Positions 18,182 through 41,808 of a DNA stretch of 64,000 nt are shown here, in pieces. The stretch lies in contig JAJZYZ010000002.1 of NCBI GenBank assembly GCA_021797815.1, positions 1,256-65,255 on the forward strand, read 5' to 3'. Made by a program: the position numbers and the translations under genes. The notes under the pieces were generated by a model. It ran no database searches. It had not been told where the DNA came from and saw nothing but the letters and a program-made list of their open reading frames with translations. The stretch is from Bacillota bacterium (lineage in GTDB: Bacteria > Bacillota > Sulfobacillia > Sulfobacillales > JAIMBI01). The number at the start of each line of letters is the position of its first letter. Position 1 is the stretch's first letter.

Positions 18182-18733
18182 GTGAAAATTTACACCAGAG
18201 GCGGGGATCAGGGCGAGACCAGCCTGTGGGGACAGGCGGGCGAAAAGCGCATCAGGAAAGACCGGGCCCGGGTGGAGGCCTACGGCAGTGTCGACGAGGC
18301 CAACGCGATCCTGGGCCTGTGCGTCGCGGCGGCCCGAGACCCCGAGCTTTCCGAGTTGCTGCAAGACATCCAGCATCGGCTCTTCGGACTCGGAAGCGAC
18401 CTTGCGACCCTGAACGAGGCGCGCCGCATCCATGTCACGGACGACGACGTGGCCGGTCTGGAAGCCGCCATCGATAGGCTCGAGGGGGAACTGCCGCCGC
18501 TCCGCCACTTCATCCTGCCGGGCGGCGGCGAGCTTGCGGCCCGGCTTCATCAGGCACGGACGGTCGTTCGCCGGGCGGAGCGGCGGGTGGTGAGCCTGTA
18601 CCAGGACGAACCGGGACCGTCGATCCACCTGCGCTATCTGAACCGGCTTTCCGATCTGCTGTTTGTCATGGCGCGGGTGTCGAACCGACGGGAAGGCGTC
18701 GGGGACGTGGAAGCGCGCTTCCGGCGACCGTGA
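18182..18733 (+). CDS. PduO-type ATP:cob(I)alamin adenosyltransferase
   Basis: (M)KIYTRGGDQGETSL...VEAYGSVDEANA N-terminus is characteristic of the family. GTG start after GGAGGTG. Confidence 0.85.
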   Translation: MKIYTRGGDQGETSLWGQAGEKRIRKDRARVEAYGSVDEANAILGLCVAAARDPELSELLQDIQHRLFGLGSDLATLNEARRIHVTDDDVAGLEAAIDRLEGELPPLRHFILPGGGELAARLHQARTVVRRAERRVVSLYQDEPGPSIHLRYLNRLSDLLFVMARVSNRREGVGDVEARFRRP

Positions 18734-37021: not shown

Positions 37022-37627
37022 TTGCTGGTTCGGCCCATTTATATCATCCCGCGTGACTCCGGCGTGCTCCGCGCCCGTTCCACCCGCGTCCGCTCGGTGC
37101 GCGAGGGAAGCGCCGTCATCCAGGACCTGATCGACACCTGGCCCACGGTTGCCGCCCACGGCATTGCCGCGCCCCAGATCGGAGTCAACCGGCGTCTGTT
37201 CGTGTACCGGCCTTACGAGGACGAGGACGATGTGCCGCCGACCGGGCTCATGAATCCCAAAATCATCAAGGCCAGCGGTGAGGTCATGGACTTCGACGGC
37301 TGCCTGTCAGTTCCGGGACTGTATGGTCAAACGCGGCGGGCGGAACGCATAGTCGTGAGCGCCGACGCGTCGGATGGTACGCCCGTACGGCTCAAGTTCG
37401 AAGGATTTACGGCCCGGATTGTCCAGCACGAGATCGATCACCTGGAGGGGGTCCTGTTCATCGACCGCCTGGACACGGTCGACGACCTCTACACCGTCGC
37501 CGAAGAGGTTCCCGAAGAGGGCGAGGGCGGAGAACCTAAGCTCGTGCGGGTGCCGCTCACCGACGAGGCGCGGGGACTCATCCTGCGCGAACAGCGTCCC
37601 ATCCCCGGTCACGCCCTGCACTGGTAG
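37022..37627 (+). CDS. def: Peptide deformylase
   Basis: ORF 36968..37627. GIAAPQIG, DGCLSVPG, HEIDHLEG. TTG 37022 follows GGAGGTG (start uncertain). Confidence 0.9.
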   Translation: MLVRPIYIIPRDSGVLRARSTRVRSVREGSAVIQDLIDTWPTVAAHGIAAPQIGVNRRLFVYRPYEDEDDVPPTGLMNPKIIKASGEVMDFDGCLSVPGLYGQTRRAERIVVSADASDGTPVRLKFEGFTARIVQHEIDHLEGVLFIDRLDTVDDLYTVAEEVPEEGEGGEPKLVRVPLTDEARGLILREQRPIPGHALHW

Positions 37628-38200
37628 CTTACGCAAGGGATCTTATAGGGGCGGCCCGCCGATTGGCACCTAAGGGGCTCCGCGCATCGGCTATACTTTT
37701 CGTCCGCTTTTGAGCTGTAAGCTCTCAAGAGGCGTGGATGTGGTCGATGGCGCCAAAACCAGACATCCGGCCGGGGGTCGTGGTTCCGGGGCGCGCGGGA
37801 GCAGGCTCCCTGCCCCGCGCCCTTCGCAAGCAACAGGCCTCGGGATCCTGTCTGGGAGCCATGGGTTTCCGGCTGCGATCCGGCCTTCCGGACGCCCGCC
37901 GCGCTCTATGACCACGCTTACCACCCCGCACCGAGTGTGGGGTGGCGCAGGGTGCGGCCCTCGACGCGCGGGTGGCGTCTTCGGCCGTCGGGGGCGCCGG
38001 CTCGGCGGCCGTCTCTCCACCACCCCCGGGGAATGGGGCCTGTGTCCAGAGGATGAGTGAAGGCGGCCTACCCTGGTGCGGCCACCGTGGGCCGCCGTCT
38101 GGCAAATGTGATGCTCGACTCCCCTCCACGGAGAGGGGCCGGGCCAGACCTCGTTCAGGACGTCCAGGGCAACGGTGCGCACCGGCCGCGGAAGACGGGG

Positions 38201-38776
38201 CTACTTGGAGATTTTCACACCCGCAGCGTTCCCAGCCGTCTCACATAGGCCGTCAGACCCGATCCCGAGGCCGATATTGGTGATGTTGAAGACGTGCGCC
38301 ACCGCGCACAACTAGGCAAGCTCGCAGATTTCGCGTTCGCTGAAATGGAGGCGCAGGCGGTCCATGGTGTCTGGTTGTATACGTTTATCGCGGATAAGCT
38401 CAGTCGCGTAGTTGAGAGCCGCCCGCTCGCCGTCGGTGAAAAGCACACTTGTCCTGTAAGCTGGAAGCGCATCGAGGAGCACCGAAACTTCAGAGGACTC
38501 GCGGAGGGCGAACCATCTGTCAGAGTCCTGGCAGAATCCGCACCCGTTAAGCAGCGCGGCCTGGTCTCGGACCAGCATGCGGACCCGTGGCGGTAGCATC
38601 AGCTTCTTTTCGAGACTGCCAGCCTTGCCAAAGAAGGTGCCGAAGGCAAGGGGCATACGCGCCATGAATACCGCAAGCGGCGGCGGAACTTTACCAAACT
38701 GCCGACGTGCGAGCCGATACACGATCTTCATCGCGAGCCCACGGGGCCGCTCAATCCGGGAGAGATACGGAGTCAT
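38201..38776 (-). pseudogene. Carboxymuconolactone decarboxylase (AhpD-like) family gene interrupted by in-frame TAG at 38312..38314
   Basis: ORF track ends at ...SEREICELA*. The same frame then continues for 36 sense codons, LCAVAHVFNITNIGLGIGSDGLCETAGNAAGVKISK, to TAG 38201..38203 with 28/36 GC3. The CGFC motif is in the upstream part. Confidence 0.7.
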
Positions 38777-38818
38777 CGCATCGGGCTCCTTTCCTTTCCT
38801 TTCGTCCCTCGTCTTCTC

Positions 38819-38876
38819 GACCCCGACCCGCTGGCTGCTGTGACAGAGGTGTCACGTTTCCATGAAAGCTTGGGTC
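38819..38876. promoter_or_regulatory. Divergent pair of ECF41-type promoter motifs
   Basis: Minus strand: TGTCACA (38845..38839), 16 nt, GGTC (38822..38819). Plus strand: TGTCACG (38850..38856), 16 nt, GGTC (38873..38876). The reported ECF41 consensus, as I recall it, is TGTCACA-N16-CGTC. Confidence 0.55.
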
Positions 38877-39752
38877 TATAAATTGATGGACGAAAAAGAC
38901 CGGCTCGCCGAACGAGTCGAGGAGGAGCGGCCACGCCTGCATGCTGTGGCCCTTCGTCTCCTGGGTTCCTCCACCGAGGCGGAGGACGCCGTCCAAGAAG
39001 CATGGATCCGCCTCGGCCGCGCGCGCGTGGAGGAGATTCAGAACGTGGGGGCATGGCTCATGACCGTGATTGGGCATGTCGCCCTCAATATGCTGCGAGC
39101 GCGGTCTCGGTGTCGGGAAGCACCCCTGGAAGAACGATGGGTGGGAGGGGATCTCCTCGATCCCCAGGAGGAATCGCTGGTTTCCGAATCGGTTGGGCTC
39201 GCGCTCCTGGTGGTGCTCGAGACGCTGTCTCCGTCCCAACGCCTCGCGTTCGTGCTGCATGACGTGTTTGGCGTGGCCTTCGATCATATTGGACGGATAA
39301 TCCGCTGGTCCCCGGAGGTGGCCCGCCAGCACGCGAGCCGGGCCCGCCAGCGCGTCCGGCGCGGGACGCCGACAGTCTCTCAGGACGCGGCCGGGCAGGA
39401 GGGCGCGGCCGAGGCATTTTTCGCGGCCGCGCGGCAGGGAGATTTCAATGCCCTGCTAAGGGTCCTGGACCCGGATGTGGCACTCAGAGTACTCGTCGGA
39501 CCGGGCGAAGTGGTGGAGGAACGGGGCGCGGATTCGGTCGCGAGGCGCGCTGTGAGTTTTGCAGACCCGGGACTGGTGGTCCGGGAGGCGAACGTCGCCG
39601 GGATCCCTGGCTGGGTGGGCCTGCGCGGTAACGTCGTGGTATCGGCCGGGTCGGTGACCGTTCGTGGTGGGAGCATCGTGGCCATCGACATCGTCATTGA
39701 CCCCGGGCGCCTCCAAGGATTGGCGATTGCATGGTCCGGCGGTAGCGCGTGA
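38862..39752 (+). CDS. ECF sigma factor with fused C-terminal SnoaL-like domain (ECF41-like)
   Basis: Sigma2 RLHAVALRLLGSSTEAEDAVQEAWIRL, sigma4 LSPSQRLAFVLHDVFGVAFDHIGRII, plus a C-terminal extension of about 100 aa. The real start may be ATG 38886 (MDEKDR) if the upstream promoter motif is used. Confidence 0.85.
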   Translation: MKAWVYKLMDEKDRLAERVEEERPRLHAVALRLLGSSTEAEDAVQEAWIRLGRARVEEIQNVGAWLMTVIGHVALNMLRARSRCREAPLEERWVGGDLLDPQEESLVSESVGLALLVVLETLSPSQRLAFVLHDVFGVAFDHIGRIIRWSPEVARQHASRARQRVRRGTPTVSQDAAGQEGAAEAFFAAARQGDFNALLRVLDPDVALRVLVGPGEVVEERGADSVARRAVSFADPGLVVREANVAGIPGWVGLRGNVVVSAGSVTVRGGSIVAIDIVIDPGRLQGLAIAWSGGSA

Positions 39753-40488
39753 TGGTGGCGCGAAAGGCTGAGCGTGAAGCGCAGCCAGCCGAGCCTTCCC
39801 GCTGGCCCGCACCCGGCTGTCTGTGTTGCCCTATTGCCTCGCATGAGGAGCCCCACTTTTCGTTTGGGCGCCGAATGGCGACCAGATGGTGCGTGAAGGC
39901 GGCGGTGGCCAGGCTCGGGCGCGTCAGTGGCCTCCATCACGTGTCGCGGGGGCCGCATGTGGCGTTGGCACCACGAGCGTCGCATAATCTGGCGGCCACG
40001 GACGGCTCACCCGTCCGACTCGTGCGACCAAGCCCGGCTTCGGTGGGAGGAGCCGTTTCCCGTCCACCGCGGGCGCTGGATTTGGTCTCGTCGCTTCTGC
40101 ATCTGGTCGTCTCGCCTCGCGACCGAGGGACCGGCTCCACGCGGGCCGCCGAGAGGGGCATAGCCGCGGCGTTGCAGTCGCGCGGAAATTATAAATTGGT
40201 AAGAGTGTTGGAGACCCTCGGGACCGCGATAGGGGCCATAGCCCCGGGCTCCTCCGCGCGGACTGGAAGCCCGTGAAGGTCCACTCGCCGACCAACCGCG
40301 AAGTCGATCTGGGCTGCACGATGGTCCCGGGCGGGAAAAGAAAGAGATCAGCCCTGACGGTATCCCGTATGGCCGATCGGCCGTGCCGGGTTCGCGGACG
40401 GCGCGACGGGCCCCTCGGGACGTGGATCGTCCCCGCTTAACCGCCCGCCCCTCGGTATCTGTCCACTGGTGCCATCGGGATGCCACAC

Positions 40489-40511
40489 TCTGGTTCTTTT
40501 CAAGAACCAGA
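40489..40511. promoter_or_regulatory. Perfect 10-bp inverted repeat (candidate operator) upstream of the MFS gene
   Basis: TCTGGTTCTT, spacer ttc, AAGAACCAGA. Sits 44 nt upstream of the GTG 40555 start. Confidence 0.35.
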
Positions 40512-40554
40512 TGAACTCCTACTCTCGACCCAGACCGAGGGCAGGGAGGCCACC

Positions 40555-41808
40555 GTGGGTCAGGACACTACGCATGGAACAGGTCCGCGGATCGGGAGTT
40601 TCTTGCCGTGGCGCGACATTCCAGGACCCATGTGGCTCGTTGGAGCGGGTTCGGCCCTGAACAGCATGGGTCTTTCATTCCTGTGGTCGCTCACCACCCT
40701 CTATGTCCACGTGCACCTCGGAGCGGGGCTGGCCTACGTGGGCCTCATTCTCACCGCGCAGCAGGGTGCGGGACTCATCGGATCTCTCGTGGGCGGCGTG
40801 CTGTCTGATCGGCTGGGAACGCGCGTGCCGCTCTTGCTTTCCGCCGCCACCGGCACGGTCTCCCTGGCGGCCATCGCGGGGGACGGCACCCTGTGGGTGT
40901 ACGCCACGGCCGCCATCCTAGCAGGCACTTCGGTCGGCATCACGTTTGCCTGTCTCAACGCGGCGGCCCCCCGCGCATGGCCTGGAGGCGGCCGGAATGC
41001 GTTCAATATGGTCTATGTCTCGTTCAATCTAGGAGTGGCAGTCGGGCCGATCCTGGCCGGGGTCCTGGCCAGCATCGACTTCCGCCTCACGTTTTTGGTC
41101 GGAGCGCTGGGACTCTTCCTGTTCTTGCTGCTGGTCATGCTAGGCTTCCGCGGTGACGCCTTCACGCGTCTTAACGAAGAGCCGGGGCACCCCGCGCGGC
41201 TGGGAGGGGCCGACCTGGCCGGCCTGGGGTGGCCGGTGTGGCTGCTGGTGGGTGGACTTCTGCTGGACTGGGTGGTCTATGCGCAGTGGTTTACGCTGGT
41301 CCCTAACTATTTGCACACGGCAGGCATCTCCATTCCGTTGTACAGCGGGCTCTGGACGGTTAACGGTGTGATGGTCCTCGCGGGCCAGCCGTTGATGCAG
41401 CGCCTTGTGGCGCGGGTTCCCCGGGTCAAGACGCAAATGCTGGTCGGCAGTGCGTTTTTCCTGCTGGGCATGATGCTTGTGACCTGGCTGCGCACCTACC
41501 CCGTCTACATCGCGGCCATGGTGTGTTCAACGGCGGGTGAAATGCTGGTGTGGCCGGCGGTACCCACAGCCGCGGATGCGGGGACAGGACCCGACCGACG
41601 AGGGCTCGTGCAGGGAGTCGTGAGCATGGCGGGGTTCGCTGGCCGCACCGTAGGTCCACTGGTGGGTGTCGGCCTGGCGGGGGTGCTTGCGGCGGGTCCG
41701 GTTTTTGGGGTCCTCGCTCTCGTTATCCTCACGGGGGGCGTGCTGTACGCCTTTTACGTGCATCCTGACCGCGCCGAAGGCCTTCAGGACGCTCAGACGC
41801 TGAGCTAA
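40555..41808 (+). CDS. MFS transporter
   Basis: ORF 40480..41808. Multiple TM segments and an LSDRLGTR loop motif. GTG 40555 lies 5 nt after AGGGAGG. Confidence 0.8.
   Translation: MGQDTTHGTGPRIGSFLPWRDIPGPMWLVGAGSALNSMGLSFLWSLTTLYVHVHLGAGLAYVGLILTAQQGAGLIGSLVGGVLSDRLGTRVPLLLSAATGTVSLAAIAGDGTLWVYATAAILAGTSVGITFACLNAAAPRAWPGGGRNAFNMVYVSFNLGVAVGPILAGVLASIDFRLTFLVGALGLFLFLLLVMLGFRGDAFTRLNEEPGHPARLGGADLAGLGWPVWLLVGGLLLDWVVYAQWFTLVPNYLHTAGISIPLYSGLWTVNGVMVLAGQPLMQRLVARVPRVKTQMLVGSAFFLLGMMLVTWLRTYPVYIAAMVCSTAGEMLVWPAVPTAADAGTGPDRRGLVQGVVSMAGFAGRTVGPLVGVGLAGVLAAGPVFGVLALVILTGGVLYAFYVHPDRAEGLQDAQTLS

Follow-up and report, generated by a model that had tools for sequence, protein, structure and literature searches.

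A putative bidirectional ECF41-type control region between a SnoaL-fused sigma factor gene and a divergent CMD-family gene, with a predicted leaderless sigma message

ECF41 sigma factors recognise promoters of the form TGTCACA-N16-CGTC, the -35 element of which is specific to ECF41, and this promoter was validated by reporter fusions with the cognate sigma factor in B. licheniformis and R. sphaeroides (Wecke et al. 2012, PMC3426412). In the window, i.e. the whole stretch of 64 kb analysed here (G+C content 66%), two motifs of this kind stand back to back in the spacer between an ECF sigma gene and a divergently oriented CMD-family gene. This raises the question of whether the spacer is a bidirectional control region through which one sigma factor serves both its neighbour and its own gene.

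Two motifs in the spacer and the genes they face

Direct reading of the spacer displayed TGTGACA at 38839-38845, followed by gagg and then by TGTCACG at 38850-38856. Sixteen nucleotides then separate this second heptamer from GGTC at 38873-38876 on the plus strand, and on the minus strand TGTCACA (38845 to 38839) is separated by 16 nt from GGTC (GACC on the plus strand, 38819-38822), just as the initial annotation had described the mirrored motifs and their identical spacing. The features of the locus are listed below.

38201..38776, minus strand: CMD/AhpD-like gene with the CxxC motif GCGFC, would-be 191 codons (Pfam, PDB matches)
38786..38802, minus strand: repeat region of the predicted CMD 5'UTR, with (AAAGG)3 in tandem at 38788..38802, CCTTT x3 on the plus strand (direct reading)
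38809..38810, minus strand: predicted CMD transcription start, 9th-10th nt after GTC, the 9th (38810) being G (from published ECF41 starts)
38819..38822, minus strand: -10 element GGTC of the CMD-facing promoter (direct reading and pattern search)
38839..38845, minus strand: -35 element TGTCACA of the CMD-facing promoter (identical to the -35 consensus specific to ECF41)
38850..38856, plus strand: -35 element TGTCACG of the sigma-facing promoter (direct reading and pattern search)
38873..38876, plus strand: -10 element GGTC facing the sigma gene, GGGTCTA in extended form (direct reading and pattern search)
38885..38886, plus strand: predicted sigma transcription start at G 38885 or A 38886, positions 9 and 10 after GTC
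38886..39752, plus strand: ECF41-like sigma gene, 288 aa, with sigma2, sigma4 and a C-terminal NTF2/SnoaL-like domain (Pfam, NCBIfam, PDB, AF2)

The pattern TGTCAC-N17-SGTC occurs exactly twice on the two strands of the 64-kb window, and both matches are the spacer sites, one per strand. The proposed resemblance to the ECF41 promoter agrees with the published consensus in that both copies keep the exact N16 spacing, with GGTC as a variant -10 element. Counted against an ECF41 reading are the -10 elements themselves, both GGTC rather than CGTC, and the terminal G of the sigma-facing -35 element; these are minority variants that nevertheless recur among relatives. The minus strand contains one more GGTC, which is misplaced at N9.

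Several other sequence elements were considered. A relaxed match, TGTCACG-N15-GGTC at 18433-18458 (plus strand), has a 15-nt spacer, lies within overlapping ORFs and is probably a chance occurrence. TATAAAT at 38877-38883 directly follows the sigma-facing GGTC and resembles a housekeeping -10 element, a role that was ruled out because it lies 3 nt from the ATG, which is too close, and is not conserved in the relative L082. A CRP/FNR-type operator was ruled out by the wrong spacing (TGTGA-N8-TCAC here) and by a half-site distance that is variable among relatives. A scan of 37600-40600 for sigma70-type promoters found none, terminator-like sites in the same interval did not exceed shuffle expectation, and an Rfam scan of the whole 64-kb window returned no family reaching its gathering score.

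The sigma protein contains Sigma70_r2 (2.7e-14) and Sigma70_r4_2 (9.9e-7), both above the Pfam gathering scores, and consists of sigma2 and sigma4 domains only, as a group-4 sigma does, followed by a C-terminal extension of about 100 aa. The SnoaL_2 Pfam match of this extension is weak (20.1 bits vs a gathering score of 27), and its SnoaL/NTF2-like nature is indicated by alignment and fold. The best PDB sequence match, M. tuberculosis SigJ (5XE7, E 3.5e-28, ~30% identity), runs through the C-terminal SnoaL_2 domain, and the AF2 model (mean pLDDT 70.6; ~80-85 for C-terminal residues 168-283) was matched by Foldseek to SigG1 and SigJ first and then to NTF2, SnoaL and KSI (ketosteroid isomerase) folds. 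The best NCBIfam models, all full length, were SigJ (196.1 bits), TIGR02957 (166.7 bits) and SigI (151 bits), followed by unrelated models at no more than 85 bits; all three scores remain below the curated cut-offs, which are 271 for SigJ (NF007214) and 323 for TIGR02957. Judged by these matches, the protein is a SnoaL-fused, SigJ/SigI-like ECF sigma factor, of ECF41 type by its best matches and below the curated cut-offs, which bears out the SnoaL fusion proposed earlier. Several neighbouring ECF groups share SnoaL-like extensions (Casas-Pastor et al. 2021).

The WLPEP linker motif, highly conserved in ECF41 (Wecke et al. 2012, PMC3426412), is absent from the window sigma, which has PLEERWV instead. 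Relative to its relatives, its sigma2-sigma4 linker (residues ~75-91; 39100-39160) has lost about 5 residues, lacks the motif form (W/H)LP(E/D)P and is modelled with pLDDT below 50; the corresponding sequence reads PLD--DPLV in L082 and HLPDPIV in more distant relatives. The window sigma also departs from the family consensus at the conserved positions F11V, E94Q and D134H.

No anti-sigma gene was detectable at the locus: in the relative L081, no gene is called between the sigma gene and the MFS gene, and a Pfam search of ORFs in the gaps 37628-38200 and 39753-40554 for a hidden anti-sigma factor or regulator gave no match. The earlier statement that a separate anti-sigma partner is missing thus accords with the gene calls and gap ORFs, and the locus appears to lack one, although the diversity of anti-sigma factors makes this an absence of evidence and nothing more. 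The gaps themselves, of ~570 bp and ~800 bp, are gene-free stretches flanking the locus that have neither Pfam or Rfam matches nor gene calls in L081, from which they differ by 9 and 7 substitutions, respectively.

On the other side of the spacer, the divergent gene reaches the CMD Pfam model at E 5.8e-4, below the gathering score. Its GCGFC motif and its PDB matches to the CMD-family structures 2IJC, 2O4D and 7XW1 (E ~3e-10, alignment to residue 172) support the family that the initial annotation had assigned, so that the window sigma has the adjacent COE gene typical of ECF41. An in-frame TAG interrupts this gene at codon 155 (38312-38314, minus strand), where L081 (99.1% nt identical, encoding 191 aa) has TGG and both L081 and the more distant relative L082 encode Trp. 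Either this stop, in what is presumed to be the sole target gene of the sigma factor, arose by recent nonsense mutation or it reflects an error in sequencing. The CMD product in the source genome is probably truncated, with the loss of residues alignable to the solved CMD fold, and the output of the circuit may therefore be defective in the source strain. In L082 (751-1371, minus strand), the match to the CMD homologue is split over two frames, one covering residues 1-121 and the other 107-179. The gene thus seems to be frameshifted, unless the assembly is wrong here, and if so this small clade would have two disrupted CMD partners. In a look for relaxed selection against L081, 5 of 7 substitutions in the sigma gene, 6 of 8 in the CMD gene and 3 of 8 and 3 of 4 in the neighbouring genes were non-synonymous, numbers too small to be read further.

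The predicted CMD leader, of about 33-34 nt, would be purine-rich, and it is not more structured than shuffled sequences (z = +1.8). Its tandem repeat had been proposed to supply the Shine-Dalgarno sequence of the CMD gene, and indeed the last AAAGG unit runs into AAAGGAG, with GGAG positioned 9 nt before the CMD ATG at 38776. The AAAGG/CCTTT unit is present in 3 copies in the window, 5 in L081 (about 2917-2941) and 1 in L082, and the difference in repeat number is the only indel in 6.9 kb of the window compared with L081. From these counts, the repeat appears to be a slippage-prone element of the CMD 5'UTR.

The sigma start codon and the predicted leaderless message

The ORF-track start of the sigma gene, ATG 38862, sits within the promoter spacer and is in frame with ATG 38886. 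Sequence alignments showed that the homologue N-termini line up at MDERDWLAERF, equivalent to ATG 38886, with MDE(K/R)D as the conserved N-terminus, while the 8-residue extension MKAWVYKL encoded from ATG 38862 is absent in homologues and the relatives L082, L106 and L107 have no in-frame upstream start. As read from the aligned sequences, ATG 38886 and not ATG 38862 is the true sigma start codon. The spacer between the two genes is consequently 109 bp instead of the 85 bp given previously, a length that applies with 38862. Gene callers start the sigma ORFs P0001 and P0006 (L163 907) at an ATG inside the promoter, in the spacer or in the -35 element, giving proteins of 296 and 301 aa extended into the promoter vs ~288-291 aa. 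A possible Shine-Dalgarno sequence, GAGGTG, lies 10 nt upstream of ATG 38862, and a longer sigma isoform made from this ATG through some upstream promoter is possible.

Published starts would place the first transcribed nucleotide close to the conserved ATG. For S. meliloti SMb20029, transcription has been mapped to begin with the 9th nt that follows CGTC (PMC6180224, Table 1), and the distances of 31/32 nt in Table 5 of Wecke et al. 2012 (PMC3426412), set against mapped leaders of 22/23 nt, imply on our reading a start about 9 nt after GTC. With starts at the 9th-10th nt after GTC, the sigma transcript would begin at 38885/38886 and carry a leader of 0-1 nt before ATG 38886. Between GTC and ATG 38886 there are only 9 nt, in which no Shine-Dalgarno sequence fits. 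The sigma message is thus predicted from the published offsets to be leaderless. This supports in silico the earlier proposal of a leaderless message whose product begins with MDEKDR, for which the homologue N-termini, the conserved GTC-N9-ATG and the published start offsets all speak.

Conservation among relatives

Alignment of the spacers of relatives showed that both motifs and their spacing are conserved. The spacer of L081 is identical to that of the window save for (CCTTT)5 in place of three copies. In L082, the sigma factor of which is 63% identical, the diverged spacer still contains CGTGACG-gcgc-CGTCACG and keeps both GTCAC cores, with GTC at N16 on both sides. GGGTCTA-N7-ATG is retained at the same distance, and the CMD-facing -10 element is TGTC at the same N16 spacing. 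The next relatives by sigma identity are P0006 (L163/L164, 57%), P0004 (L165, 56%), L106 (52%) and L107 (46%), all of which possess the back-to-back layout of the window with GTC-N9/10-ATG and have -35 elements that overlap by 2 bp or abut. Their partner genes differ and encode a DUF6069 protein, a flavodoxin-like oxidoreductase with a SnoaL_4 protein, or an AhpD-like CMD protein. GGGTCT(A/C) and the G directly before the ATG are conserved in L082, L106, L163 and L165. Altogether, the GTC-N9-ATG geometry around the deduced start site is conserved in six lineages, with neither a Shine-Dalgarno sequence nor an alternative start. Relatives closer than ~52% came only from a protein search and contig look-ups; scans of genome and metagenome contigs yielded no sigma relatives above this level, and those listed were mostly Actinomycetota.

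A broader survey covered 147 usable loci with sigma factors 44-63% identical to that of the window, in which the 200 nt preceding the sigma start were searched for motifs. A sigma-facing motif was present in 82 loci (56%), an outward-facing one in 40 and both orientations in 22, and in 65 of 84 matches the sigma-facing motif ended 30-40 nt before the start codon. The base before GTC in the sigma-facing motifs of relatives was C in 57 of 85 and G in 25 of 85, and G occupied position 7 of the -35 element in 9 of 85. The loci of these 65 matches usually carry an interleaved 62-bp module, TGTCACA-N16-CGTC-(8 nt)-GACG-N16-TGTGACA, which abuts the sigma start codon so that the sigma Shine-Dalgarno sequence falls within the spacer of the partner promoter. 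The locus in the window accordingly belongs to a minority back-to-back class. Examples of the interleaved module, ~75 nt upstream of the sigma start, were seen in L050, L079, L121, L126, L133, L158, L111, L115, L109 and L010, and each predicted start in it falls on the -10 element of the other promoter; no description of this fixed geometry was found in the ECF41 literature examined.

The initial annotation had regarded a motif facing the sigma gene itself as unusual, a view that does not hold. Among 55 divergent <ECF< >COE> loci, 36 possess a sigma-facing motif (Wecke et al. 2012, PMC3426412, Table 4), in line with the 82 of 147 relatives counted here. Moreover, the commonest layout in the same study has the sigma gene co-transcribed from the COE promoter, so that autoregulation is the normal state for ECF41.

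Proposed circuit, rival readings and known systems

We consider it probable (about 0.75) that the spacer is a bidirectional control region with two back-to-back ECF41-type promoters, both driven by the adjacent sigma factor, which would be produced from a leaderless message under positive autoregulation. In this scheme, the active sigma-RNA polymerase holoenzyme would use both promoters. Transcripts from the leftward TGTCACA-N16-GGTC would encode the CMD/AhpD-like protein and have a normal Shine-Dalgarno sequence in a purine-rich leader of ~34 nt, and the rightward TGTCACG-N16-GGTC would initiate at G 38885 or A 38886, with translation from ATG 38886 in a Shine-Dalgarno-independent manner. Transcription of the sigma gene by its own product would close a positive feedback loop, and the fused SnoaL-like domain, following the ECF41 literature, would control sigma activity in cis. 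The motifs and their uniqueness, fixed spacing and conservation are observed, as are the family, fold and N-terminus of the sigma factor; we infer that the window sigma itself recognises both sites, the exact positions at which transcription would start, and that its message undergoes leaderless translation. Considering that the -35 centres are 11 bp apart and that the -35 elements overlap in relatives, simultaneous occupancy of both promoters is probably not required, and competition between them is plausible.

Other explanations for the same sequence differ in which promoter is used and by which protein. If only the CMD-facing promoter were functional and the sigma-facing motif a silent echo, a housekeeping-type promoter would supply the sigma gene with a leadered transcript, and translation would begin at ATG 38862 via GAGGTG. 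That ATG is the first start of the ORF and follows GAGGTG at 10 nt, gene callers picked it for P0001, and TGTCACA is nearly its own reverse complement, all of which suit this scenario; yet six diverged lineages retain the sigma-facing -35 and -10 elements as well as their distance to the ATG, the MKAWVYKL extension has no counterpart in homologues, three relatives lack an upstream in-frame start, and 37600-40600 holds no sigma70-like promoter, making it decidedly improbable. A paralogous ECF41 sigma factor encoded elsewhere might instead be the main driver of both promoters, in which case the locus would be part of a cascade and not autoregulated. Several ECF41 paralogues are often found in one genome, and a sigmaJ-dependent promoter upstream of sigI is documented in M. 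tuberculosis, but the 64-kb window (the rest of the genome being outside view) encodes no second ECF sigma factor, most relatives combine this sigma subfamily with the motif, and, where this was studied, the COE promoter is driven by the sigma factor encoded beside it (Wecke et al. 2012, PMC3426412). We regard a cascade of this kind as improbable.

The inverted repeat GTGAC-N6-GTCAC could also be imagined as the operator of a dimeric transcription factor in place of two -35 elements, as the perfect 5+5 inverted repeat in the window and the 18-bp perfect palindrome in L082 would allow. The distance between the halves, however, varies among relatives (overlap of 2 bp; gaps of 0, 4 and 13 bp) while N16 to the outward GTC stays constant, which favours two promoters over an operator; no regulator gene was detected nearby either, and an operator is very improbable. 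As for a chance co-occurrence of two short motifs, the expectation for TGTCAC-N17-SGTC in the window is 0.38, and 7 of 100 shuffles gave at least two matches somewhere in it, but both actual matches lie in one spacer beside the cognate sigma gene, on opposite strands and conserved in relatives. A rough estimate for one match per strand inside one given spacer of ~100 bp is ~1e-7, and location together with conservation effectively refutes chance.

A further reading is more far-reaching and, in our judgement, unlikely: the window sigma would represent a distinct ECF41-like subclade with a differently built feedback loop, and the loci would comprise two apparently undescribed classes of bidirectional modules with fixed geometry. 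If so, the subclade would be marked by the shortened linker without WLPEP and by GGGTCT-type -10 elements, and the promoters, through -35 elements that stand back to back and in some relatives overlap, would be in competition for a single sigma4 site. The sigma factor would come from a leaderless, Shine-Dalgarno-independent message and the target gene would be Shine-Dalgarno dependent, and the back-to-back layout and the interleaved 62-bp module would constitute the two classes of bidirectional ECF41 promoters.

Returning to the preferred reading of two ECF41-type promoters served by the adjacent sigma factor, the arrangement is real but has already been described, and the predicted leaderless sigma message and the back-to-back geometry are its modest new details. 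The locus leaves the picture of ECF41 regulation unchanged and provides an ECF41-type bidirectional promoter as a clean case open to testing, whose autoregulatory transcript is probably leaderless in one subclade. It also corrects the sigma start codon from 38862 to 38886 in a case where the ORF has been called from an ATG within the promoter. Strain-level details are the variable 5'UTR repeat and the nonsense mutation in the CMD gene, which belongs to the one type of target known.

The nearest known systems are the ECF41/COE modules Ecf41Bli-ydfG of B. licheniformis, Ecf41Rsp-RSP_0606 of R. sphaeroides and RpoE9-SMb20029 of S. meliloti (PMC3426412; PMC6180224). Common to them and the locus in the window are a sigma2-sigma4 core fused to a C-terminal domain of ~100 aa, the lack of an anti-sigma gene, an adjacent CxxC CMD gene, TGTCACA-N16-(C/G/T)GTC and a motif before both divergent genes. 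The studied examples are co-directional or have a CMD leader of 22-23 nt, whereas the genes here are divergent with back-to-back -35 elements; the locus further differs in the predicted leaderless sigma message, the GGTC -10 elements, the missing WLPEP and the premature stop in the CMD gene. M. tuberculosis SigJ (5XE7)/SigI, with SigJ as the best full-length match of the window sigma, likewise exhibits ECF41-type promoter recognition; unlike the window locus, sigJ lacks a COE gene beside it, and its action on the sigI promoter forms a cascade.

RsfG is the anti-sigma factor of SigG1 from Streptomyces tsukubaensis. SigG1 (ECF56, PDB 7QH5) carries a fused SnoaL_2 domain like the window sigma and is a top Foldseek match together with SigJ, with a sequence match confined to sigma2 (E 1.6e-9). 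SigG1 is described as working in a SigG1-RsfG system (PMC7730460), whereas the window has no such partner gene and its motif is that of ECF41.

Leaderless mRNAs of high-GC bacteria start at or 1 nt before the AUG and have no Shine-Dalgarno sequence. Compared with these messages in general, the transcription start of the window sigma gene would be set by an ECF-type promoter and not by a housekeeping -10 element.
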